DNA of 39,733 nucleotides from positions 1-39,733 of IMG/VR virus record IMGVR_UViG_3300031084_000003; one strand, written 5' to 3'. The stretch comes from a virus. The notes beneath the pieces are model-generated. The model saw nothing but the letters and a program-made list of their open reading frames with translations, ran no database searches and was not told where the DNA came from. Shown in pieces: positions 8,051-39,733 of the stretch (position 1 is the first letter of the stretch; each line of letters begins with the position of its first letter). Position numbers and translations under genes: made by a program.

Positions 8051-8554
8051 ATGATTCCTGAAATGTTGACCAACTGCGTCATGTTTGTTGATGGCGTGAG
8101 CTTTTCCGGTGATGTGCCGTCCATGACGCTGCCCAAGCTGTCGATTAAAACCGAGGAATATCGGGGGGGCGGCATGAGCGGTCCGGTCGACCTCCCCACC
8201 GGCTTGGAAAAGCTGGAAGCTGCATTCACCACCAACGGCGTGCGTAAAGAGGCTCTGAAGTTCTTCGGCCTGGCGGATCAGACCGCATGCAACCTTGTTT
8301 TCCGTGGTTCGTTCAAAGGTCAGAAAGGCACCGTCAAGTCGGTAACTGTGACGATGCGCGGATCGCTCAAAGAGGTTGATATGGGCGACTGGAAGCCAGG
8401 CGACAAAGCCGAAGTCAAACACGCCGTAGCCGTCACCTACTACAAGCTCGAAATCGACGGCCGTGTGATGTTCGAAATCGACTTTGCCAACATGGTGCAA
8501 GTGATCAACGGTGTTGATCAATTGGCCGCTGAACGTTCGGCCCTGGGCCTTTAA
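8051..8554 (+). CDS. FII: Tail tube protein, P2 FII-like
   Basis: 167 aa directly after the sheath gene. MIPEMLTNCVMFVDG... is typical of P2-type tubes. Confidence 0.85.
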   Translation: MIPEMLTNCVMFVDGVSFSGDVPSMTLPKLSIKTEEYRGGGMSGPVDLPTGLEKLEAAFTTNGVRKEALKFFGLADQTACNLVFRGSFKGQKGTVKSVTVTMRGSLKEVDMGDWKPGDKAEVKHAVAVTYYKLEIDGRVMFEIDFANMVQVINGVDQLAAERSALGL

Positions 8555-17250: not shown

Positions 17251-17610
17251 CTGGAGGCGCGGGGCAAGGAAACAGCTCTGCGCTGATTAGGCCGCCGTTC
17301 CGTCAGCAAGGCGCCTTCCAGTCGCTGTGGGGCGCTTAACGACCGCGCCCGACTCTCGGTTAGCGATACGCCCCTTCGCTCCTTCACGCGCCGGCTACGC
17401 TCACGCAGTCGCGCAAGCGCTCCAGTGATCAGTGATAGGGGCTCGCCTGGCTGATTTGTCAGGCTTCAAGCCAGCCAGCGCTTGTTTGGGCGTAGTTCAA
17501 GCTAACTACGTGCCGTCACCGCCCTGAGCGCTTCGCGTGGCTTATGTGCTTTCTGTGGCTGTTACAGCGGACAAGGGCGCAGCAACAGCCGGACAAGAAA
17601 GATTTTCGAG

Positions 17611-17650
17611 AATGACGAAATAACGAATTGACGAAATAACGAAACGCAAA
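17611..17650 (+). repeat. ACGAA box array A (4 boxes, exact 8-bp phasing)
   Basis: ACGAA at 17615, 17623, 17631 and 17639, separated by AT-rich trinucleotides (TGACGAAATAACGAATTGACGAAATAACGAA). Confidence 0.9.
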
Positions 17651-17653
17651 TAA

Positions 17654-17706
17654 GGTTCATGCCAAGGCCGGGCATTACGCCAAGGCCGCTATCCGGGGTA
17701 TGAACC
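17654..17706 (+). promoter_or_regulatory. Leader module 1: inverted repeat GGTTCAT/ATGAACC enclosing two CCAAGGCCG repeats 18 bp apart, ending 1 nt before the ATG at 17708
   Basis: Read directly. Paralogous to 18537..18585. Confidence 0.7.
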
Positions 17707-17707
17707 G

Positions 17708-18022
17708 ATGACTAGGCAAGATCCGCACGTGGTCGCTTTGAAGGCGGCATTTTTTGACCGCTACGCAATCCAACTCAATGCACGCATTGCCGGGGGATCG
17801 CAGCGCGATTGCCTGGTGTTGGCCGTGCCTGATTTTCGCAAGAGCGCCGAGATAGACCGCTCGCAGTTAGTGAACATCGGTATTTGGCTTGAGTCCCAAG
17901 GGTATTATTTGTGCGAGGATTACGGGCGCGTCGGCCTGCTGGCTTCGCCGTCTGGCTGGACCTGCTGGAACGCCGGCGTGTCGGTCAAGGTGCGTTATTG
18001 TCCTGGGCGTTTAACGAAATAA
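17708..18022 (+). CDS. Hypothetical protein (104 aa)
   Basis: ORF between arrays A and B. The last codons (LTK, stop) are encoded by array B. Confidence 0.6.
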   Translation: MTRQDPHVVALKAAFFDRYAIQLNARIAGGSQRDCLVLAVPDFRKSAEIDRSQLVNIGIWLESQGYYLCEDYGRVGLLASPSGWTCWNAGVSVKVRYCPGRLTK

Positions 18023-18045
18023 CGATTTAACGAAATGACGAATGA
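18011..18045 (+). repeat. ACGAA box array B (4 boxes, 8-bp phasing)
   Basis: ACGAA/ACGAT at 18014, 18022, 18030 and 18038, followed by the 9-bp-stem hairpin ACCGCCGGC-aca-GCCGGCGGT (18045..18065). Confidence 0.9.
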
Positions 18046-18085
18046 CCGCCGGCACAGCCGGCGGTTTAGCATTGGAGGCTGAAGG

Positions 18086-18505
18086 ATGTTTGTTTTGCTG
18101 CTGCGTGACGGGTCACGCACTGAGATAGAGGCGCCAGATTTTTGGGAGGCTATGCGCGTAGCGCTCCGCCTCGACGCGGCGCAACTTGAAGTGCCGGGCG
18201 ATCCGCCCCGCTCGATGACGGCGGATCAAGTTCGGCATGAGTTGGCCCTTGATCGTCCGGGTCTGTTCGATCCGTACGCGCCTGACTGGTCTCCACCGAC
18301 GGCGGCCGAGTTTCGCGAGTTGTTGCGGGTTGCTGATCTTTCCGCGAGCAAGGCCGGCATGCTGGTGGGGGTCGACTCTCGCAAAATCCGCAAGTGGGCG
18401 GGTGACGAAAAAGCGGACATGCCTTATGCCGTGTGGCGCCTTCTGAGCATCTACGCTGGGCTTGCAGAAGCACCAAACCATCCAGCTAACGAAATAACGA
18501 AATAA
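18086..18505 (+). CDS. Putative DNA-binding protein with a C-terminal XRE-type helix-turn-helix
   Basis: 139 aa. AEFRELLRVADLSASKAGMLVGVDSRKIRKWAGDEK.MPYAVWRLL is an XRE-like HTH pattern. GGAGG SD. The last codons (EITK, stop) are encoded by array C. Confidence 0.65.
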   Translation: MFVLLLRDGSRTEIEAPDFWEAMRVALRLDAAQLEVPGDPPRSMTADQVRHELALDRPGLFDPYAPDWSPPTAAEFRELLRVADLSASKAGMLVGVDSRKIRKWAGDEKADMPYAVWRLLSIYAGLAEAPNHPANEITK

Positions 18506-18530
18506 CGAATTGACGAAATAACGAATTGAT
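18486..18530 (+). repeat. ACGAA box array C (5 boxes, 8-bp phasing)
   Basis: ACGAA at 18489, 18497, 18505, 18513 and 18521. Confidence 0.9.
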
Positions 18531-18536
18531 TTTAAA

Positions 18537-18585
18537 GTCTGCTCCAAGGCCGGGGATTGACCCAAGGCCGCACCCTGGAGCAGAC
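18537..18585 (+). promoter_or_regulatory. Leader module 2: inverted repeat GTCTGCTCC/GGAGCAGAC enclosing two CCAAGGCCG repeats 18 bp apart, ending 2 nt before the ATG at 18588
   Basis: Read directly. Same architecture as 17654..17706, but the arms have a different sequence. Confidence 0.7.
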
Positions 18586-18587
18586 CG

Positions 18588-18791
18588 ATGACTACCGCGC
18601 AACTTGCGGCCCGCATGCAAAAAGTGGCCGACCAACTCCCTACCTCCCGCCTGATTGAAGCTGTCCACCACCTGGGCGGCGCCATCTTGCCGCCGACCGA
18701 TAACATGGTGCGCGCGGCGCTGCTGTCAGCTTATGAGGCGCGCAAAGGTGGCGAAGCCATGGATGCGCTGATGGATCAAATCGGACTTTAA
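18588..18791 (+). CDS. Hypothetical protein (67 aa)
   Basis: ORF starting ATGACT, like the 17708 ORF. Helical, with no motif recognised. Confidence 0.55.
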   Translation: MTTAQLAARMQKVADQLPTSRLIEAVHHLGGAILPPTDNMVRAALLSAYEARKGGEAMDALMDQIGL

Positions 18792-18837
18792 GCATGATCG
18801 CCCCGGCTGCGCCGGGGCTGTTGATGGAGCTGCAAGC

Positions 18838-20529
18838 ATGGCTAAGAAGAAAACCGACGCCCAGGAACTGCCGCTGGAGCAGCAGCCGCTGTTCCTCAAA
18901 ACTCTTGAATTTCTGCCGGCCGAACGTGCCGCCCTGGAGCAACTGGCCGGCGATATGCTGCGGCTGTTCAACGATGCCATGGTTGCCAGCAGTGCGCGCG
19001 ACATTGAAACGTCAGTGCTTCGGTATAAAGCGGTGGTCTATCGATTGAATGGCGATACGTTCATGGGGTGCGCCACGGATGAGGGTGCAGGGGGGCAGTT
19101 GCTCAAGCAGTTAGCCGCGCCTGCAGGTGTGGTGCCAGGCTGGGGACAGGCCGGCCAATATTTGCTTGATATCGACGGCATGCGGCTGCGCGTGAACGTA
19201 GACCCCTGGAGCATGGGAGGCATGCACAGTTTGAGTTTTCGCGCTGTAGACGCCTCGGCCAAGTTCATCAGTGAAACAGGCTACCTGAGCCAGTTCCTGC
19301 ACACTGACAAGCATGTGGGCCAAACCTTCGGCCAGGCGGTGCGCGCCCTGGTGGAGCAGCTACTGCATGGCGAGTTCAAGCCGAAGGCCATCCGCGAGGA
19401 AGATCGCGCCAAGATCACCGTGCCGGCCTGGCTTGTGCCGGCACTGCAAGGCGTTACGCGTAACGGTCAGTTGAATATGCCGCTGTCGGGTGAGCCGCAA
19501 TTGACTGAGCCGGTAGCGAAGGTGCCACTGAGCAACGCCAAGCGGCAGCAACTGCACCGGCAGCGCCTCAAGGAGCGCGCGCAGACCGAAGGGCTTAAAG
19601 TTATCCCGCTGACCCAAGAAGAGCGCATGGTGTTGAGCCTGGGCGTGCTGGCTCATGAGGATTTGTTTCATCGGCCGAAGGACTGGGCCACCAGCAAGAA
19701 GCCTGGATTTGATTCGCTGCTGATCAAGCTGTGGCCCGAAGGCGATGACGGCCGTTATTTGGCTGAGCCTGAGCGTAGCACCCGCCGGCCTGCTGGGTTC
19801 CTGCGCGATGAGTTGAAGTATCAGCGCGAGCGAGTCACCCGCCTTGAGATTGAAAACCGCGCGCTGCGCGCCGGTGAGCCAGTAGCCGGTGAGGTGGTCG
19901 TGTCCGCTGATGACCCGCATAACTGGGCGCGCACCGTGAAGCTGACGCGGGATGAAGATTCGCTGATGCTGTGGGCTTTCAGTGTGTTTTTCACGGCACG
20001 CGCTGACCTCGATCACTTGAAGTCGCCTTTAGTGCTGGAGAACCTAGAGACGATATTTCAGGGTTGCCCCATGTGGACCGAGAAATTCAAGGCCCAGCTG
20101 GATCAGGATCAGGGGATAATCAACGGCACCAAATACCGGGAAAAAGAGGCTAAGCGCGGCTGGAAATGTTACGAAGATGAGCGAAAGCAAAACGTCCAGT
20201 TGTTCAAAGAGCGGGCCGCTGATCGCGCTGAAATCGAGCGTCTAAAAGCCGCGCTCAACGAGATTGCCGCCGAGGTTGGGGCACCAGCTGCGGCGCCTAT
20301 GGTGCGCAAGCATGATGGCAAGCCCATGGATTTGGAGGGCCTGAATCGTGAAGTTGATTGGCTGGTAGGTGAGCTGAACAAGGCTACGGCCAAGGCCGAC
20401 GCGGTGGAAAGAGAGCAGGTTTTGCTGGAGTCTGAGCGAAACAAGGCGTTTGAGGCCAACAAGACTTTGACCGAGCGCCTACGCCGCGCAGGCCTGCCGA
20501 CCGATTACCGCAAGCAACCGGGCGAGTGA
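18838..20529 (+). CDS. Large hypothetical protein (563 aa) with a coiled-coil C-terminal third
   Basis: GGAG SD. Protein-like composition throughout. C-terminal heptad-like charged region (ERLKAALNEIAAE..., KATAKADAVEREQVLLESERNKAFEANKTLTERL). No catalytic motif recognised. Confidence 0.75.
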   Translation: MAKKKTDAQELPLEQQPLFLKTLEFLPAERAALEQLAGDMLRLFNDAMVASSARDIETSVLRYKAVVYRLNGDTFMGCATDEGAGGQLLKQLAAPAGVVPGWGQAGQYLLDIDGMRLRVNVDPWSMGGMHSLSFRAVDASAKFISETGYLSQFLHTDKHVGQTFGQAVRALVEQLLHGEFKPKAIREEDRAKITVPAWLVPALQGVTRNGQLNMPLSGEPQLTEPVAKVPLSNAKRQQLHRQRLKERAQTEGLKVIPLTQEERMVLSLGVLAHEDLFHRPKDWATSKKPGFDSLLIKLWPEGDDGRYLAEPERSTRRPAGFLRDELKYQRERVTRLEIENRALRAGEPVAGEVVVSADDPHNWARTVKLTRDEDSLMLWAFSVFFTARADLDHLKSPLVLENLETIFQGCPMWTEKFKAQLDQDQGIINGTKYREKEAKRGWKCYEDERKQNVQLFKERAADRAEIERLKAALNEIAAEVGAPAAAPMVRKHDGKPMDLEGLNREVDWLVGELNKATAKADAVEREQVLLESERNKAFEANKTLTERLRRAGLPTDYRKQPGE

Positions 20530-21597: not shown

Positions 21598-21632
21598 CGC
21601 CGCGTTACCAATAACGCCGCTTATGTATAAAA

Positions 21633-21670
21633 GGCCCCCACACTTACGCCAAGTGTGGGGGCCTTTTTTT
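21633..21670 (+). terminator. Strong intrinsic terminator
   Basis: 13-bp stem GGCCCCCACACTT/AAGTGTGGGGGCC followed by T7. Confidence 0.85.
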
Positions 21671-21769
21671 ATGCCCACGGAAACCACACCCCCCTAGACT
21701 GGCATACCAGTACCCCATAGAGTGGTTTTACGCACTGATACCCCCTCACTCGAAAAAGGAATCCGGCCT

Positions 21770-23094: not shown

Positions 23095-23569
23095 GTGCAA
23101 TCCGGTTAGAGGCCGGGCTTGCGTTCTCACAGGGAGCATTAGCGTGTGCGTTGATGGTAGCGCCGGGCTGCAAGTAAACACAAGACAACACAATGAAATA
23201 ATCGTTATTTACGATCTACGGTCGATTATACGCCAACCATTCGTCAACTTTTAAAACCCCGCAAACCCAAGCTGTGCGCGGCTCTTGGCTGAAAATGAAA
23301 CGAATTCTGAAACGCAATGCGCCGGCGCCGCAACACAAAGCTGAAATCCTCGATATGATGGTCACGTTCCGCGTTCGTCACCTTTGAGGTTGGCCGGGCC
23401 AGCGCGCGAATTTTGGACCGACTGCCACGGATTAGAGACCCGTACCGGTTAATGCAGAAGGACCATAAGCCCAGCCGCCTCATAGGGAGCATTAGCGTGT
23501 TTCCCGAAGGTGCGCAAGTTCCGGTAGAGCGCACTGGAGGTACGGCCCAACCACGGGAGGGCCGCCAAC

Positions 23570-23772: not shown

Positions 23773-24033
23773 TCACTTCCCGCCCTTAGCGTCCTTGAGT
23801 AGGGCAAAGCCTTGGCGAAGAACATCAACCATGCTCATCTTGTGCATGGCCGCAAACATCTTAAGCTCATGCTTGAATTGAGCGTCCACCTTGAAGTTGG
23901 CTGTTACAAGTTCTTCTGGTGCCGCCTGGTGGGTGTGGCCGGCTTTGCTCAGTGCTTCGGCAGCCAGTGGCGAGGCCGGGGCGATGCCCTTCGTGGAGTT
24001 GCGGCGAGGTGGCTTCGGGGCTTGTACTGTCAT
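23773..24033 (-). CDS. parG: Ribbon-helix-helix DNA-binding protein, ParG-like centromere-binding/repressor candidate
   Basis: 86 aa. A disordered basic N-terminus, then ANFKVDAQFKHELKMFAAMHKMSMVDVLRQGFALL, a strand-helix-helix pattern like TP228 ParG. Directly downstream of the ParA-like gene. Confidence 0.65.
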   Translation of the reverse strand: MTVQAPKPPRRNSTKGIAPASPLAAEALSKAGHTHQAAPEELVTANFKVDAQFKHELKMFAAMHKMSMVDVLRQGFALLKDAKGGK

Positions 24034-24045
24034 GGCGCGACGTCC

Positions 24046-24072
24046 TTTAATTCGTTAATTCGTCAATTCGTT
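24046..24072 (-). repeat. ACGAA box array D (3 boxes) between the parA stop and parG start
   Basis: TTCGT at 24051, 24059 and 24067 on the plus strand (ACGAA on the minus strand), 8-bp phasing. Confidence 0.85.
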
Positions 24073-24732: not shown

Positions 24733-24775
24733 AATTCGTCAATTCGTCAATTCGTCAATTCGTTAATTCGTTAAC
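24733..24775 (-). repeat. ACGAA box array E (5 boxes), between the par promoter and the parA start
   Basis: TTCGT at 24735, 24743, 24751, 24759 and 24767 on the plus strand. Confidence 0.9.
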
Positions 24776-24783
24776 GCTGGGCC

Positions 24784-24813
24784 AGTATAGGCGTTCCAGT
24801 GTTACAGGATCAA
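24784..24813 (-). promoter_or_regulatory. Candidate sigma70 promoter of parA-parG (TTGATC-N18-TATACT on the minus strand)
   Basis: The reverse complement of GATCAA (24808..24813) and AGTATA (24784..24789). Flanked on both sides by ACGAA arrays in opposite orientation. Confidence 0.55.
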
Positions 24814-24814
24814 G

Positions 24815-24842
24815 AAATAACGAATTAACGAAATAACGAAGT
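24815..24842 (+). repeat. ACGAA box array F (3 boxes, inverted relative to array E)
   Basis: ACGAA at 24820, 24828 and 24836. Confidence 0.85.
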
Positions 24843-24844
24843 AT

Positions 24845-25261
24845 TCAGACGTAGAGAGTTTGGCGGGATGGGGGGCCGCCGGCGCTGGCGGGGGAGGTGC
24901 GGAAGCTGCGGGAGTGTTCCGTTAGGGTTCTGCTGCGCCGCTGTGAGCGCGTGCGGTTCATGTCTGTGTCAACTTCCAGCACAGCAATAACACAGAGCAT
25001 TAAGCAAAGTGCTTGTGGTACCAGAACCCCCAGCGTGAAGCCGCGCGTGATCATATGCGCTTTATTCTTGGCGCCCAGCTTGCTCAGAATATTGCGCTCG
25101 ACCATCCGCATGCCGATATCGTCAAGCTGCAATTCTTGGGCGATGATGGGGGTTGCGAACCCTTCAGCGGTTTTGACTAGAACGAACAGTTCTTTATCCG
25201 TCAGGTTCTGGCCAGGGTAGCCAATCACTTCGTCGCCGTGGACCTGGACGCACGCATTCAT
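24845..25261 (-). CDS. LuxR/GerE-type HTH protein with a C-terminal transmembrane segment
   Basis: From the ATG at 25261. LTDKELFVLVKTAEGFATPIIAQELQLDDIGMRMVERNILSKLGAKNKAHMI is a LuxR_C-like HTH. It is followed by the hydrophobic VLVPQALCLMLCVIAVLEV and a basic tail. Confidence 0.65.
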   Translation of the reverse strand: MNACVQVHGDEVIGYPGQNLTDKELFVLVKTAEGFATPIIAQELQLDDIGMRMVERNILSKLGAKNKAHMITRGFTLGVLVPQALCLMLCVIAVLEVDTDMNRTRSQRRSRTLTEHSRSFRTSPASAGGPPSRQTLYV

Positions 25262-25295
25262 GGAGGGACGCTTCCTTGCGAGAGGGGAGTGGGTC

Positions 25296-25547
25296 TTAGT
25301 GACTGGAGAGGTCGAGACGAAGCGCATCTACTTGGCGTTTGAGCAGACCCAGTAAGTCGGCCATTGCTTCCATGCTCTCCATGGTGACGTGTCCCTGGTC
25401 GATGGCGTAAACAGCCATGGTGTGCATGCTGCCTGCTAGCGATGACACTTCTTTCAAGGCTATGACGCGCTGTTGTTGAATGGCGAGTGCACCTTTTTGG
25501 GCGACCACAAGTTGACTGTTTGGTGGGGTATCTACGCTGCCTTGCAT
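25296..25547 (-). CDS. Hypothetical protein (83 aa), first gene of the leftward operon
   Basis: ORF downstream of the operator-like site at 25585. No motif recognised. Confidence 0.5.
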   Translation of the reverse strand: MQGSVDTPPNSQLVVAQKGALAIQQQRVIALKEVSSLAGSMHTMAVYAIDQGHVTMESMEAMADLLGLLKRQVDALRLDLSSH

Positions 25548-25641: not shown

Positions 25642-26307
25642 CTATCTGTCGTGGGATATTCGGACCACGCGACCCACAATATCCAGTTCCGCCAGAGCTT
25701 CAGGTGTCAAAGTGCTATCAGGGTATTGCTGTGAGTCCCCTGCTTTGAGAGTGAAGGTGCTATTTAATTCCGGGCAAATCCAGCGAACCCAAACAGTGCC
25801 GGCTACCACAATGCCAAAAAGGTCGGCGCCGCGAACAGTGGTTTGCGCGCCATCTAATAGCAGTTCGTCGCCTTCAGCGATAAGTGGAGCCATGCTTGTG
25901 TCGATCTGCTTAATGCAAAGCAGCTTGTTTCGGTTCATGCCACGGCTTTCGATGTAATCAAGGCTGAAAGCGGTGTTATCCGTGACTTGCGAGAGTGTCA
26001 GCAGGCCGTTTTTGGTCGAGATATTTGGCGGGTTGGCTGTCACATAATTGGACGTGACCGCACTCAAGCTGTCGTTGTCGGTGTAGCCCTGGATCCAGGC
26101 GGGGGTTTTGCCAAATAGCTTGGCAAGCAAGATAACTTGATCGGTTGGCGGCATCCGCAACCCAAGCTCCCAGTTGGAATACCGGGAGTAAGTCATATTC
26201 GTACCCGACAAGTCGCTGAGTCGTTTGGCCGTTTCCTCAAGGGTCCAGCCGGTGGCCTGGCGACAATCTTTAAGCCGCTGAGCCACTACTTGTACTAATT
26301 CAGACAT
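25642..26307 (-). CDS. cI: CI-type repressor: N-terminal XRE HTH plus C-terminal S24 (LexA-like) autopeptidase domain
   Basis: ATG at 26307 with a GAGAG SD (the ORF opens at TTG 26313). HTH WTLEETAKRLSDLSG. C-terminal DTSMAPLI (Ser) and TLKAGD (Lys), as in S24 peptidases. Divergent from the cro-like gene. Confidence 0.85.
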   Translation of the reverse strand: MSELVQVVAQRLKDCRQATGWTLEETAKRLSDLSGTNMTYSRYSNWELGLRMPPTDQVILLAKLFGKTPAWIQGYTDNDSLSAVTSNYVTANPPNISTKNGLLTLSQVTDNTAFSLDYIESRGMNRNKLLCIKQIDTSMAPLIAEGDELLLDGAQTTVRGADLFGIVVAGTVWVRWICPELNSTFTLKAGDSQQYPDSTLTPEALAELDIVGRVVRISHDR

Positions 26308-26383
26308 GCGCAATCTCTCATAGGGCGCCGTGAGGTTTCACGCCTTGGCAATTGTTTAATACTAGCGTCTATCTGGTGAAATA

Positions 26384-35770: not shown

Positions 35771-37302
35771 ACCTGCTGGACAAAGCCCTGGCGCCGATGT
35801 TTCCGGGGATGGTCGCCCAGCGACTACGAGCGCGGAACGTGATAATGGCCTTCGAAGCCGCCACGGTCACGCGCACGCACAAAGCCAAAAAGCAGACGAA
35901 AAGCGCCGACGCTTCGCTGAATCGCACGCTCAAATCACTGCGCGAGCAGTGCCGCAAGCTGGACGAAGATCACGATCTTGTCACGGGCCTATTAGATCGC
36001 CTGGAAGAGCGAGTGGTGGGTGGGCCAGGCATTGCCGTTGAGCCGATTCCGATGGGCTATGACGGTGCGATAAATGTCGAGTTTGCAGCGCAAATCAAGG
36101 CGCTGTGGGGGGAGTGGTCACTTAAGCCCGAGGCGTCTGGTGAACTGACTCGGCCGCAAATGGAGCGGCTTATCTGTCGCACCTGGCTGCGCGATGGCGA
36201 GGCCTTGGCGCAAATGCTGATGGGCAATGTGGCCGGCTACGAGCATCTGCACGGCGTACCGTTTGCCCTGGAGTTGTTGGAACCGGATTACTTGCCCGTT
36301 GAGTACACCGACCTGTCCAAGGGCATCGTGCAGGGCGTTGAGCGCAACGACTGGCGCCGGGTGCGTGCTTATCACTTGCTCAAGTCGCACCCAGGCGATC
36401 AGCGCGGCATTTTTGCGCAGAACACCAAGCGCGTCCCGGCAGAGCAAATGATTCACATCGCGCACCGTAAACGCATTGGTCAGAACCGTGGCCAGCCGCT
36501 GCTACATGCCGTTTTGATCCGCCTGGCGGACATCAAGGATTACGAGGAAAGCGAACGGGTGGCGGCGCGGATCAGTGCGGCGTTGGCCATGTACATCAAG
36601 AAGGGCAATAACGAGGACTTTATCCCCCCGGTCAGCGGTGAGGTTCGTGCTGAGCGAACTTTCCCGCTCGCGCCCGGGATCGTGGTCGACAGCCTGTTGC
36701 CAGGTGAAGACGTCGGGATGATCGAAAGCAACCGTCCGAACACGTTCCTTGAGGGATACCGCAACGGCCAGCTCAAGGCGGTAGCGGCGGGTACGCGCGG
36801 CACCTTTTCCAGTGTTGCGCGCAGTTATGACGGTACCTACTCGGCACAGCGCCAGGAACTGGTCGAAGGCCAGTTGGGTTACGACCTGCTGCAGCATGAG
36901 TTCATTGACTACTGGTGCCGCCCCGTTTATCGAAAATGGCTCGAAATAGCGATTCTTAGCGGCCAACTGGTTGTGCCCGATAGCGTTGACCCTAAGACGG
37001 TCTATGGGGCGTTTTATCAAGGCCCGGTGATGCCCTGGATCAATCCGGTGCATGAGGCCACGGCGTGGAAGCTTCTGGTTGAGGCCGGCTTTGCAGATGA
37101 GGCCGAAGTGGCCCGGTCGCGGCAGCGCAACCCTTCAGAACTCAAGGCATCGCGCACGGCGGAAGTTGCCGCGAACCGCGAGAACGGGCTGGTTTACAGC
37201 TCGGACTACTACCACCAAATCTACGGGAAGAATCAGCCCAATGATGAAGAAAAACAACGGGCCGCTGATGCGGCCACGGGCGTCGATCAGCGCGACGAAT
37301 AA
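35767..37302 (+). CDS. B: Portal protein, lambda gpB family
   Basis: 511 aa. ATGA overlap with W. Size and position as for lambda B. Confidence 0.9.
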   Translation: MNLLDKALAPMFPGMVAQRLRARNVIMAFEAATVTRTHKAKKQTKSADASLNRTLKSLREQCRKLDEDHDLVTGLLDRLEERVVGGPGIAVEPIPMGYDGAINVEFAAQIKALWGEWSLKPEASGELTRPQMERLICRTWLRDGEALAQMLMGNVAGYEHLHGVPFALELLEPDYLPVEYTDLSKGIVQGVERNDWRRVRAYHLLKSHPGDQRGIFAQNTKRVPAEQMIHIAHRKRIGQNRGQPLLHAVLIRLADIKDYEESERVAARISAALAMYIKKGNNEDFIPPVSGEVRAERTFPLAPGIVVDSLLPGEDVGMIESNRPNTFLEGYRNGQLKAVAAGTRGTFSSVARSYDGTYSAQRQELVEGQLGYDLLQHEFIDYWCRPVYRKWLEIAILSGQLVVPDSVDPKTVYGAFYQGPVMPWINPVHEATAWKLLVEAGFADEAEVARSRQRNPSELKASRTAEVAANRENGLVYSSDYYHQIYGKNQPNDEEKQRAADAATGVDQRDE

Positions 37303-39298
37303 GCCCGAGGAAAGTTGGTATTCCATCCGAGCTGCGTCGCGGGGGGTGGCCGAAATCATGCTCTACGACGACATCGGCGCGTGGGGGATCTCGGCTCGCC
37401 AGTTCGCGCGCGATCTTGCTGCACTCGGTGACGTGTCACAAATCAACCTGCGGATTCATTCAGGCGGTGGTGACGTGATGGACGGCACGGCCATGTACAA
37501 CATTTTGCGCGGCCATTCGGCCCGCGTAGAGGTGTACATCGACGGCATGGCCGCGTCGATGGCCAGCGTTGTCGCGATGGCGGGTGACGTGATCTACATG
37601 CCGGCCAACTCCATGATGATGATCCACAAACCATGGGGCGGGCAGATTGGCGATGCCGACGACCTGCGCGAATACGCCGACTTGCTCGACAAGGTCGAGG
37701 GCACGTTGGTGCAGGCCTATGCACGTAAGACGGGCAAATCTGCCGAGGAAATCGCGGCAATGCTCAAGGTAACAACGTGGATGGATGGAAACGAAGCGGT
37801 GGCGGCCGGCTTCGCGGATCAGGTGTTAGAGCCTATCAAGGCCGCCGCACAACTTAATTCGAAACGTCTGGAGGAATACACCAGCATGCCTCAAACAATG
37901 CACACCTTGATGAATCCGCGCGGTTCGATTCCTGCACCTGCACCTGCACCTGCACCTGCACCTGCACCAGCCCCTGCCCCGGTCGCTACCCTGACGCCGG
38001 ATCAAATCCGCGCCCAGGTGTTGGCCGATGAGGTGTCCCGTCGTGGCGGCATTGTGGCGGCCTTCGGTGCTTTCGGCGCCGCTCATGCGGATCTGCTGCG
38101 CACTTGCCAGGATGACGTCACTTGCACGGTCGCCCAGGCGCGCGAGCAACTACTGGCGGCAATGGGTGCGGGCACTGCGCCTGTCGCTTCCCTGCGTCAC
38201 CCTGGCCACGTCGGCAACGGCAATCTGGTAGGTGACTCGGTACAAGCGTCGTTGCTGGGCCGCCTGGGCATCGAAGCCAACCAAGCAGACAACGCTTATA
38301 ACCACATGACTTTGCGCGAACTGGCCCGTGCTTCGCTGCATGATCGCGGTATCGGGGTGGCGACTCTACGCCCGATGGATATGGTCGGTCTGGCGTTTAC
38401 CCACGATGCCAGCGACTTCGGCAACATCCTGTTGGATGCCTCGCACCGTTCGCTGCTTGCGGGCTGGGAAGATGCCGAAGAGACCTATCACTTGTGGACT
38501 CGCCAAGGCCGTTTGAGCGATTTTAAGGTGGCCAACCGCGTCGGCCTGGGTTCGTTCTCGACCCTGCGTGAAGTTCGCCCAGGTGCTGAATACAAGTACA
38601 TCACCCTCGGTGACACCGGCGAGACGATCCGCCTGGCCACTTACGGCGAAATCTTCAGCATCAACCGTCAGGCGATCATCAACGATGACCTCGACGCCTT
38701 GAGCGCGATCCCGCGGTTGATGGGCGCCGCAGCCCGCGCGACTATCGGTGATCTGGTGTATGACACCCTGATCAATAACGGCAAGATGAAGGACGGCAAG
38801 CCACTGTTCGACGCCTCGCGTAAAAATCTGTTTTCCGGCGCCGGTTCGGCGCTATCGATCGCGGCCATGAGTACGGCCAAGACCGCTATGGCGTTGCAGA
38901 AGGGCAAGCCGGCCAAGGAAGGTGAGAAGAACCGTACATTGAATGTGCGTCCTGCTTACCTCTTGTGCCCCGTGGCCCTGGAAGATCAGGCCAACCAGTT
39001 GATCCGCTCCACGTCGGTGCCAACTGCCCAGGTCAACGCCGGCGTGGTCAACCCAATCCAGAACTTCGCCCAAGTAATCGGCGAGCCGCGCCTGGACGAC
39101 AATTCGTCCTCGACTTGGTATCTGGCTGCGAAGCAGGGTAGCGACACCATCGAAGTGGCTTATCTGGATGGCGTCGACGTGCCATACATCGACCAGATGG
39201 AAGGTTTTACCAGCGACGGTATCGCGACGAAGGTTCGTATTGACGCTGGCGTCTCTGCGCTCGATGCGCGAGGCCTGAACAAGTCTGTCGGCGCGTAA
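37241..39298 (+). CDS. Prohead protease (ClpP-like) / major capsid protein fusion
   Basis: From the ATG at 37241 inside ORF 37052..39298. N-terminal ClpP-type motifs (INLRIHSGGGDVMDG, GMAASMASVV, MMIHKPW), a (PA)n linker, and a C-terminal roughly 370-aa capsid-like domain. Confidence 0.85.
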   Translation: MMKKNNGPLMRPRASISATNKPEESWYSIRAASRGVAEIMLYDDIGAWGISARQFARDLAALGDVSQINLRIHSGGGDVMDGTAMYNILRGHSARVEVYIDGMAASMASVVAMAGDVIYMPANSMMMIHKPWGGQIGDADDLREYADLLDKVEGTLVQAYARKTGKSAEEIAAMLKVTTWMDGNEAVAAGFADQVLEPIKAAAQLNSKRLEEYTSMPQTMHTLMNPRGSIPAPAPAPAPAPAPAPAPVATLTPDQIRAQVLADEVSRRGGIVAAFGAFGAAHADLLRTCQDDVTCTVAQAREQLLAAMGAGTAPVASLRHPGHVGNGNLVGDSVQASLLGRLGIEANQADNAYNHMTLRELARASLHDRGIGVATLRPMDMVGLAFTHDASDFGNILLDASHRSLLAGWEDAEETYHLWTRQGRLSDFKVANRVGLGSFSTLREVRPGAEYKYITLGDTGETIRLATYGEIFSINRQAIINDDLDALSAIPRLMGAAARATIGDLVYDTLINNGKMKDGKPLFDASRKNLFSGAGSALSIAAMSTAKTAMALQKGKPAKEGEKNRTLNVRPAYLLCPVALEDQANQLIRSTSVPTAQVNAGVVNPIQNFAQVIGEPRLDDNSSSTWYLAAKQGSDTIEVAYLDGVDVPYIDQMEGFTSDGIATKVRIDAGVSALDARGLNKSVGA
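37931..37981 (+). repeat. Tandem hexanucleotide repeat (CCTGCA)n encoding the (Pro-Ala)n linker
   Basis: Six perfect CCTGCA units followed by degenerate units, read directly. Confidence 0.9.
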
Positions 39299-39360: not shown

Positions 39361-39681
39361 ATGGCCATGGCCACGAATCATGTAAGCAGTGGTGAAACCG
39401 TTACGCTGCCGGCCCCAACTGGCGGTTCTGTCGCCGGCATTCCGCAGATGATCAACGATCTGGCGGTGATCCCGATGAGTACCGGTCCCAAGGGAACGAT
39501 CATCGTTTACCGCCTCTGTGGCGTCTGGAGCGTCCCGGCGGATGCGGCTCTGAAAGCTGGCATGAAAGCCAACGTCAAGGCGGGCGCGCTGGTGCTGCCT
39601 GCCACCGCTGACTCGTTCCCGTTCGGCAAAATGCAGTCTGATTCCGTCGGTGGTTATGCCGACGTGCTGATCGTTCAGTAA
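39361..39681 (+). CDS. Small head protein, DUF2190-like (decoration/cement candidate)
   Basis: ATG at 39361 preceded by AGGAGAAAA. 106 aa, beta-rich, directly after the capsid gene as in Gifsy/lambda-like heads. Confidence 0.7.
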   Translation: MAMATNHVSSGETVTLPAPTGGSVAGIPQMINDLAVIPMSTGPKGTIIVYRLCGVWSVPADAALKAGMKANVKAGALVLPATADSFPFGKMQSDSVGGYADVLIVQ

Positions 39682-39733
39682 TGGCCCTCGCCCGTTTCAG
39701 AGAAGTGGCTGACCGTGTGGACGCATTGCTGGT
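39607..39733. repeat. Terminal direct repeat, copy 2 (identical to 1..127)
   Basis: Read directly. Confidence 0.95.

Follow-up and report, generated by a model that had tools for sequence, protein, structure and literature searches.

Phased repeat arrays beside accessory genes of a likely Pseudomonas phage-plasmid are candidate binding sites of its predicted ribbon-helix-helix partition protein

Why would a phage genome repeat, beside a cluster of small genes, the short boxes that surround its partition (par) operon, and which protein would read them there? The question is raised by IMG/VR virus record IMGVR_UViG_3300031084_000003 (positions 1 to 39,733), the whole 39,733-nucleotide stretch of which is called the window below. 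The window holds six arrays of ACGAA boxes with an 8-bp phase, and no more than six. Three of them (A, B, and C) lie at 17.6-18.5 kb, and the other three (D, E, and F) are found at the parA operon, which encodes a type Ib ParA and an 86-amino-acid (aa) protein predicted to have a ribbon-helix-helix (RHH) fold (Table 1). We consider it likely, on the strength of sequence comparisons, that arrays A to C are binding sites of the 86-aa RHH protein, the same binder that is predicted at arrays D to F, and that the segregation protein is also a gene regulator. The evidence that decides for one protein at par and at the distal arrays is the co-variation of the box across replicons, joined by the conserved placement of the arrays.

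A whole-window scan found ACGAAN3ACGAA 16 times, where 0.04 matches would be expected, and none of 100 shuffles reached 16. Searching the whole 39.7 kb with a three-box pattern at up to 3 mismatches gave no match outside the six arrays. An earlier note on this DNA had counted four boxes in array A, four in array B, and five in array C, with a total of 24. Its coordinates were correct, with the amendment that array B consists of three perfect boxes and one ACGAT variant, making the total for the six arrays 23 perfect boxes plus one variant. The proposal that arrays A to C share their unit with arrays D to F was also borne out, with WTRACGAA as the unit throughout. The description of this unit as a 5-bp box with an AT-rich spacer did not survive: there is no free spacer, and seven of the eight positions of W-T-R-A-C-G-A-A are essentially fixed in the 24 units of the window and in 218 units from relatives. 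Positions 2-4 of all 24 window units read TAA or TGA, and three units at an 8-nucleotide (nt) period with a stop in every unit therefore place stops in all three frames. Array B overlaps the stop codon of orf104, which ends LTK-stop within the array, and array C overlaps the last codons and stop of orf139, which ends EITK-stop. The shared TK-stop ending that had drawn attention earlier is thus real, but it is a trivial consequence of a unit that itself carries stop codons. Arrays B and D each begin at the upstream stop, the last base of the parA stop being the first base of box 1 in array D; array D ends just before the next Shine-Dalgarno (SD) sequence, and array B is parted from the next SD by a hairpin. 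Array F is inverted relative to the par operon and abuts the -35 element of the par promoter.

Viral contigs were scanned by pattern and orf139 was used as a query, which together yielded about a dozen Pseudomonas relatives, and conservation of array positions was judged only in relatives whose fetched sequence covers the sites. All six positions are kept in these relatives, with arrays A to C flanking orf104 and orf139 and arrays D to F flanking parA. The number of units per array ranges from 3 to 6 across relatives (3-5 in array B and 4-5 in array C). One relative, L134, has another packaging and head module, yet it carries the same six arrays and the same par/klcB block. Array D is kept in all relatives that cover the junction of parA and the RHH gene, including elements of Shewanella, Halomonas (with ACGC boxes), and Aliivibrio (with AAGAA boxes), and wherever the par promoter is covered, an array, as a rule inverted, precedes it. 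In the Shewanella relative L167, a par promoter of the form TTGACA-N18-TACAAT lies in the same array sandwich, and further arrays follow parA and the RHH gene.

Were the par and the distal arrays read by a single protein, a changed par box should recur at the distal arrays. This is what we observed: distal arrays match the par box of their own replicon in each of three dialects (ACGAA, ACGC, and AAGAA). The ACGAA dialect is found in Pseudomonas elements, including L018, whose ParA is only 46% identical and which has one distal array in a leader; in Edwardsiella pEI-2083-2, at par, the tape-measure/tail junction, and the integrase junction; and in Vibrio VPHZ6 and pVPGX2, at par and in about 10 gene-junction arrays that include capsid and tape-measure junctions. 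The Halomonas qaidamensis phage-plasmid L133 shows the F/E/D layout at par with ACGC boxes. Away from par, three ACGC units stand in a row at a gene junction (10077), and runs of two units occur as well, among them a pair (2+2) ahead of the integrase gene. ACGC runs of at least three units number 4 in L133 against 0.03 expected, and ACGAA runs number none. The non-phage mercury-resistance plasmid pZM3H1 (L136) has ACGC/ACGT boxes at par and a distal array with the matching box (21693-21712) about 120 bp upstream of a RelE/ParE toxin-antitoxin operon, suggesting that the RHH protein may regulate other maintenance genes in ordinary plasmids too. In Aliivibrio phage H905, the par boxes read AAGAA, and so do those at four distal junctions, one ahead of the integrase gene, one preceding a gp25-like gene, and two more elsewhere; this phage has no ACGAA arrays. 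A fourth dialect, ACGGA, was seen at a par locus on a short contig. The earlier suggestion that the par and distal arrays are read by the same protein is thus supported both by conserved placement and by the co-varying boxes of the ACGC and AAGAA replicons.

The arrays of the relatives lie almost exclusively at gene junctions despite coding densities of 84-90%. In pVPGX2, nine runs from the scan and two further runs are all at junctions, as are 6/6 in H905. Of 31 arrays that we tallied, 25 point the same way as transcription, and four of the six that do not are the ones ahead of a par promoter; this bias could be an mRNA constraint, the sense strand being A-rich with stops and the antisense strand T-rich. 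The late structural operons of the Vibrio elements hold arrays at 8151, 9138, 11537, 16125, and 21370 in pVPGX2 (L132) and at 2494, 3481, 5881, and 14828 in VPHZ6 (L129). The junctions occupied are those at capsid, gp25-like, tail fibre assembly/sheath (pVPGX2 only), and tape measure/tail genes, with gaps of only 25-110 nt, which makes promoter operators seem unlikely at these arrays. Many relatives carry an extra array in their own dialect just upstream of an integrase-family gene (L085 4128-4148, L123 10392-10412, L128 32088-32114, L133 9193-9229, and L135 18852-18881), and the window itself has no array upstream of its integrase-family gene.

The same signature was sought more widely. A pattern scan of a genome collection returned mostly unrelated repeats from other phyla, with only L167 and L187 as true relatives, and a chromosomal match in P. 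koreensis (L174) was rejected as a relative, being without par or cassette homologues. Chromosomes of Latescibacterota metagenome-assembled genomes (matches L138-L217, such as OZ242195.1) contain many 8-bp-phased ACGAA-type arrays unrelated to the par family, and the stretches fetched from them hold no ParA or RHH homologues. Aeromonas phage 32 has the RHH gene without clear par arrays, and a Roseibium homologue of the RHH protein has neither an adjoining parA gene nor arrays.

The par operon of the window has the features of a type Ib system: a small ParA, a small gene downstream, a predicted RHH fold with a tail, and repeats at the operon promoter. ParA is of the small Walker type without an N-terminal DNA-binding domain and matches Pfam CbiA/MipZ/AAA_31 and, below the curated cut-off, NCBIfam ParA_partition (E 1.7e-26). 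The 86-aa open reading frame (ORF) starts 37 nt past the parA stop, and the gene pair is kept in relatives whose fetched sequence covers both. An AlphaFold (AF2) monomer model of the 86-aa protein has a mean predicted local distance difference test score (pLDDT) of 68 overall and 84-87 over residues 50-80, with a disordered basic tail (residues 1-43), an extended segment (44-49, TANFKV), and two helices (51-63 and 68-83). Of the 31 Foldseek matches to this model, about 28 are RHH proteins that superpose at 1.4-1.6 A over about 40 residues, among them CopA_SO, VapB, CopG, Arc, ParG 1P94, AmrZ, PutA, and ParD. An exhaustive profile search with the family reached 183 clusters of small proteins. 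When 60 diverse members were compared with Pfam, RHH_10 was matched by 14 and ParG by one (E 0.0015), and others matched Antitox_RHH, 56B_RHH, and FitA-like RHH. At the N terminus, members have in common the motif PPKK...(S/T)KG-x-P, and the N-F of the strand hardly varies among them; in PHROGs, the 86-aa protein matched only a family of unknown function. The strand-helix-helix order, the Foldseek matches, and the RHH_10 members support the RHH type that had been assigned to this protein earlier, and we predict an RHH protein of the centromere-binding type that is functionally like ParG or omega. By sequence it stands outside the ParG (Pfam PF09274) and omega families; Pfam, NCBIfam, and PDB sequence searches gave no direct homology to either. 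The neighborhood of this operon includes two further observations. A GerE/LuxR-type helix-turn-helix (HTH) gene of 160 aa (24845-25327, minus strand) lies between the CI-like repressor gene and par, with array F directly after its stop; it is kept in Pseudomonas relatives. A 22-nt direct repeat, CTCAYAGGGAGCATTAGCGTGT, is present in two copies 353 bp apart (23126-23147 and 23479-23500) in a 760-bp non-coding stretch adjoining the RHH gene, and this pair could mark an origin or an RNA gene.

The -35 elements of conserved promoter-like sites fall within arrays A and C, for which reason we consider these arrays probable operators from their sequence. The TTGACG of putative promoter PA (17628-17633) is part of the third unit of array A, and that of PC is part of the fourth unit of array C. 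Leader alignments showed both hexamers and the 17-nt spacing to be fixed in 10/10 relatives, and the sequences TAAGGTTC in leader A and TAAAGTC in leader C, exactly 17 nt past the TTGACG unit, are invariant in all 10. The array boxes are likewise invariant in 10/10, six to seven bases of the PA spacer vary, and the sequence 5' of array A is unalignable. PC is the only sigma-70-like match in 17400-18900 in a consensus scan. A promoter in array B was rejected, as neither the consensus scan nor the alignment gave a conserved -35/-10 pair. The earlier idea of the arrays as operators fits the genes starting at 17708 and 18588 and the 563-aa klcB homologue, which follow TTGACG-17 nt-TAAGGT or TTGACG-17 nt-TAAAGT, and falls for array B.

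A strong hairpin does follow each of arrays A, B, and C, as had been noted earlier, with z-scores of -3.6, -4.05, and -4.1, respectively. The two-tier hairpins of leaders A and C have a 5' arm that overlaps the putative -10 and a 3' arm that holds the SD, and the 3' arm in leader A ends 2 nt ahead of the orf104 ATG. Within the window, the core of these hairpins, CAAGGCCGGG-N8-CAAGGCC, is confined to leaders A and C. The inner stem co-varies in these leaders (CG to GC in seven sequences, UA to CG in five, and G-U in three), and leader C has a compensatory change from CTGCTCC/GGAGCAG to CAGCTCC/GGAGCTG in L121 and L124. In a transcript begun at PA or PC, only the inner stem would be left; in a read-through transcript the whole hairpin would fold, and the SD would be hidden in it. 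The core, an imperfect palindrome, could be an RNA structure or an operator for the HTH protein encoded by orf139, and the covariation fits both. Behind array B, the hairpin is followed by the orf139 SD GGAGG, and CCGCCGGC...GCCGGCGGTTTAGCATTGGAGGCT is near-invariant in 10 relatives. The hairpins are an element separate from the arrays. An Rfam search of 17400-18900 found no RNA family at gathering thresholds and only two weak, chance-level matches. Pairs of CCAAGGCCG had been considered as iterons and were rejected, being the two sides of the inner stem or imperfect palindrome in leaders A and C only; with no iteron-like repeats beside arrays A to C, a replication origin adjoining these arrays was rejected as well.

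What would be controlled is a small cassette. The product of orf104 is 81-97% identical across 10 relatives and had no match in searches against protein families. The orf139 product gave an AF2 model with a pLDDT of 91.8, in which an N-terminal alpha/beta domain precedes a four-helix C-terminal domain. A profile of its homologues matched the HTH domain of AcrIF24 in PDB (E 0.002-0.006), AcrIF24 ranked first in Foldseek with Aca1, Aca2, and Aca10 among the other top matches, and some homologues carry an XRE regulator annotation. Behind leader C, orf67 is present in seven relatives, and an unrelated 108-aa ORF stands in its place in L121 (5701-6027), L124, L021, and L082; the promoter, array, and hairpin ahead of this gene are kept whichever cargo follows. 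The 563-aa gene is 80% identical at the nucleotide level to that of a 'KlcB family protein' of pA506, and its L134 homologue carries Pfam KlcB_N. PADLOC gave no relevant defence-system match on the cassette, and annotation as a defence system was rejected on that result. The cassette looks like an establishment or anti-defence module, which we offer as a lead rather than a finding. It recalls acr-aca operons such as those of Aca1 and AcrIF24 in that an HTH gene, here with an AcrIF24/Aca1-type HTH, follows a small gene behind a promoter with a palindromic element; it differs in that no anti-CRISPR homology was found for orf104, and the sequence resemblance is weak (E about 0.002).

The genome that carries these arrays is complete. 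Its first 127 bp (1-127) are repeated exactly at its end (39607-39733), an overlap from which a circle of about 39.6 kb without chromosomal flanks follows. A complete tailed-phage gene set is present (tail sheath, baseplate, tape measure, gpA-type terminase, capsid/protease fusion, holin, and endolysin), along with a CI-like S24 repressor (25642-26313), an integrase-family recombinase, and the plasmid-type genes for the 215-aa ParA, the 86-aa protein, and the KlcB-family protein. Contigs with homologues of the 86-aa protein and orf139 are mostly 34-41 kb long. Distant relatives are recorded as circular plasmids (pEI-2083-2 in Edwardsiella and pVPGX2 in Vibrio parahaemolyticus), and Vibrio phage VPHZ6, a virion isolate, is collinear with pVPGX2. 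Judged from sequence, the Pseudomonas element is likely a phage-plasmid in lifestyle, although an integrase-family gene is present in the window.

In the mechanism that we favor, by analogy with ParG and omega, one RHH dimer would bind each 8-bp WTRACGAA unit, and neighbors would cooperate along the array. Binding at arrays F and E would autoregulate par. Occupancy of arrays A and C would cover the -35 elements and repress orf104-orf139 and orf67-klcB, and these genes would be on when the element enters a cell without the protein and go off as the protein accumulates. Arrays B and D could be roadblocks or insulators, extra loading sites, or both. Array-bound protein would activate ParA, by which arrays of at least four units (A, C, E, and marginally B) may also be accessory centromeres of the plasmid prophage. 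Regulatory and centromere roles are compatible, and sequence alone cannot tell them apart. A more ambitious proposal, which we hold tentatively and think somewhat doubtful, makes the RHH protein a genome-wide organizer that would act through arrays at promoters and between cistrons, in some members also within late structural operons. It would be at the same time a centromere binder, a stoperator-like silencer or insulator of the plasmid prophage, and a zygotic-induction switch by which a candidate anti-defence cassette (AcrIF24/Aca-like plus KlcB) is expressed in a burst when a naive cell is entered.

Arrays A to C might instead be purely accessory centromeres, extra loading sites without effect on the flanking genes. 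Dispersed centromeres have precedent in phage-plasmid N15, which has four separate sites, IR1-4 (PMC7205306), and a TP228 centromere with four to six boxes keeps about half of its activity (PMC3130281); arrays B and D lack a promoter, and arrays of relatives lie inside late operons. This explanation leaves aside that each of arrays A and C encloses a -35 element and that a conserved -10 follows at exactly 17 nt, it would not lead one to expect so strong a co-orientation, and known RHH systems repress transcription when promoter sites are occupied (PMC3130281, PMC9499535). We regard it as improbable. A quite different explanation moves the function to RNA, the arrays being A-rich, unstructured leaders that stop upstream translation in three frames and boost the next initiation without any DNA-binding protein. 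Every unit in the window has its stop codon, and arrays stand at junctions just upstream of SDs, mostly co-oriented, as this would require. What it fails to explain is the strict 8-bp phasing and a box that changes in step with the par locus, as well as the inverted arrays ahead of the par promoter (array F and its counterparts) and array A if PA is the promoter. The AGCACGAA units of Vibrio, moreover, are without stop codons, and we find an RNA-level role very unlikely.

There is similarly little to be said for a different DNA-binding protein at the arrays. The two candidates are the GerE/LuxR-type 160-aa protein, whose gene lies between the repressor gene and par in the Pseudomonas relatives covering that interval, and the orf139 product, a predicted DNA-binding protein encoded inside the A-to-C cluster. 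Neither gene was detected or annotated in the array-bearing replicons outside Pseudomonas (Vibrio, Edwardsiella, Aliivibrio, Halomonas, and Shewanella), and ParA and the RHH gene are present in every one of them. HTH dimers normally read palindromes, not 8-bp direct repeats, and the palindromic hairpin cores are better candidates for orf139 sites. Least of all do we expect the arrays to be module boundaries or selfish repeats that promote recombination of mosaic phage modules with no regulatory or partition role. In its favor are the varying gene after array C, the unit numbers of 3-6, and L134, whose structural module differs while its par/klcB block is the same. Against this stand the strong purifying selection on array positions and sequences relative to their flanks, the tie to a par operon with the same repeats around its own promoter, and a box dialect that tracks the par locus in each replicon.

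Several points weigh against binding and regulation by the RHH protein, the reading that we prefer, or narrow it. The 86-aa protein of the window has no Pfam or NCBIfam match at E <= 0.01 and no PDB sequence match, ParG 1P94 included; the Foldseek matches are individually non-significant, with E-values of 1 or higher; and the RHH assignment leans on a modest monomer model (pLDDT 68). Strand residues and box showed no simple correspondence, with NFRV accompanying ACGC and NFCV accompanying ACGGA but NFAV still accompanying ACGAA. The rule that a single residue sets the box, a change of K to R going with one of ACGAA to ACGC, was rejected, as NFAV also goes with ACGAA and NFQV is accompanied by a motif that is not phased. 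PA falls below the threshold of the consensus scan and has a weak -10 (3/6 match), the GGT of which is under constraint from the hairpin as well. Arrays D and E have TTGACG units too, with no -10 after them, so that the -35 match arises in part from the repeat itself. Arrays B and D lie between cistrons and cannot be promoter operators. The plasmid lifestyle of the Pseudomonas element is drawn from the end overlap, the element-sized contigs, and the plasmid records of distant relatives. Lastly, we found no binding, expression, or stability experiments on family members in the literature.

Each component of the proposal has a known counterpart. TP228 ParG binds 8-bp-spaced boxes, with an operator, OF, at the par promoter (PMC3130281). 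As in the window, a small Walker ParA (ParF) precedes a small RHH protein with a flexible N-terminal tail, and direct and inverted repeats with 8-bp periodicity flank or overlap the operon promoter with dual operator and centromere potential (parH and OF); we liken OF to the par promoter sandwiched by arrays F and E (PMC3130281). ParG has no detectable sequence similarity to the window protein and reads a 4-bp box plus a 4-bp AT spacer, in contrast to the unit with seven of eight fixed positions. The window also differs in that further arrays separate parA from the RHH gene and others stand at genes 5.5 kb away, and in being a likely phage-plasmid. Omega of pSM19035 binds contiguous repeats at PcopS, Pdelta, and Pomega that double as parS, and ParA activation takes four or more repeats in a row (PMC9499535). 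This delta/omega system shares with the window an RHH partition protein and short contiguous repeats overlapping the promoters of several operons. Its repeats are 7-bp heptads of a Firmicute plasmid at promoter sites only, whereas arrays B and D and many arrays of the relatives are intercistronic without a promoter.

Binding sites scattered through a phage genome are shared with N15 SopAB, which is unlike the present system in being type Ia, with an HTH ParB, single palindromic sites, and a linear plasmid prophage. The N15 Sop system reportedly facilitates late gene expression, according to the title of a 2008 paper cited in PMC11652158. In RK2, the partition DNA-binding protein KorB is a global repressor of plasmid genes (PMC13584720), and KlcB, of unknown function, belongs to the regulated accessory set of the plasmid (PMC2665229). 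A partition protein proposed as regulator and a KlcB-family gene in the regulated set are likenesses to KorB/IncC; KorB differs as a ParB-type CTPase sliding clamp that acts on palindromic OB sites and cooperates with KorA and TrbA. The stoperators of mycobacteriophage L5 are many short, asymmetric repressor sites at promoters and in short intergenic gaps, oriented with transcription (PMC9283540). They resemble arrays B and D and the junction arrays of VPHZ6/pVPGX2 and H905, but they are single 13-bp sites bound by a monomeric immunity repressor, whereas here repeat arrays have a partition protein, not the CI-like repressor, as predicted binder. For pZM3H1, the published account predicted only a "ParB-type" 80-aa protein and "7-bp imperfect inverted repeats" (PMC3606827). 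We found no description in the literature of the 86-aa family, its boxes, or dispersed arrays, and nothing relevant on the other named replicons. The component ideas are already known from TP228, pSM19035, KorB, and N15, and what we propose is a variant of the omega/ParG/KorB theme in an undescribed family of likely phage-plasmids of roughly 37-46 kb in Pseudomonas, Vibrio, Aliivibrio, Edwardsiella, and Halomonas.

Two other features of the window lie apart from the arrays. One 748-aa ORF (37052-39298) joins a ClpP-type protease domain to a major capsid protein domain as a protease-capsid fusion. The second feature, at 21629-21667 between convergent genes, consists of two 17-nt arms (AAAAGGCCCCCACACTT / AAGTGTGGGGGCCTTTT) that are perfect inverted copies of each other and are flanked by A/T runs; it probably terminates transcription in both directions.

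Table 1. Positions of the arrays, promoter-like sites, hairpins, and genes discussed in the text
Feature	Position	Strand	Remarks
Array A	17612..17643	+	ACGAA at 17615, 17623, 17631, 17639; 4 WTRACGAA units
Putative promoter PA	17628..17656	+	TTGACG, 17 nt, TAAGGT; -10 at 17651-17656
Leader A two-tier hairpin / imperfect palindrome	17654..17706	+	folding free energy (dG) -28.1, z -3.64
orf104	17708..18022	+	conserved small gene, function unknown
Array B	18012..18042	+	ACGAA at 18014, 18030, 18038 and variant ACGAT at 18022; intercistronic
GC-rich hairpin past array B	18045..18065	+	z -4.05; terminator-like, weak T tract
orf139	18086..18505	+	N-terminal alpha/beta domain and C-terminal AcrIF24/Aca1-type HTH
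Array C	18486..18525	+	ACGAA at 18489, 18497, 18505, 18513, 18521; 5 units
Putative promoter PC	18510..18538	+	TTGACG, 17 nt, TAAAGT
Leader C two-tier hairpin / imperfect palindrome	18537..18586	+	dG -28, z -4.12; SD GGAG (18577-18580) in 3' arm
orf67	18588..18791	+	variable cargo gene behind leader C
KlcB-family gene, 563 aa	18838..20529	+	
86-aa protein	23773..24033	-	predicted RHH centromere-binding/regulator protein, ParG-like in function
Array D	24051..24071	-	3 units, from parA stop to SD of RHH gene
Type Ib ParA, 215 aa	24071..24718	-	deviant Walker A KGGPGKST
Array E	24735..24771	-	5 units, from par promoter -10 to parA SD
par promoter	24784..24813	-	TTGATC-18 nt-TATACT, between arrays F and E
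Array F	24812..24840	+	3 boxes (24820-24840) and degenerate fourth AAGAA at 24812

If the RHH protein binds all of the arrays, segregation, copy-number sensing, and gene control would run through one 86-aa protein in a temperate phage, and the logic of omega and KorB would reach from conjugative plasmids to phage-plasmids. The arrays would then form part of an entry-triggered switch, with genes on in cells without the protein and off once the element is established, and the controlled cassette resembles anti-defence and establishment genes. The junction arrays of the relatives offer a natural system for asking whether a centromere-binding protein can be a transcriptional roadblock, comparable to the L5 stoperators. 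The protein family itself is unannotated, its members being recorded as "hypothetical protein" with no Pfam domain, and its dialects ACGAA, ACGC, AAGAA, and ACGGA could be compact, orthogonal RHH-DNA pairs.

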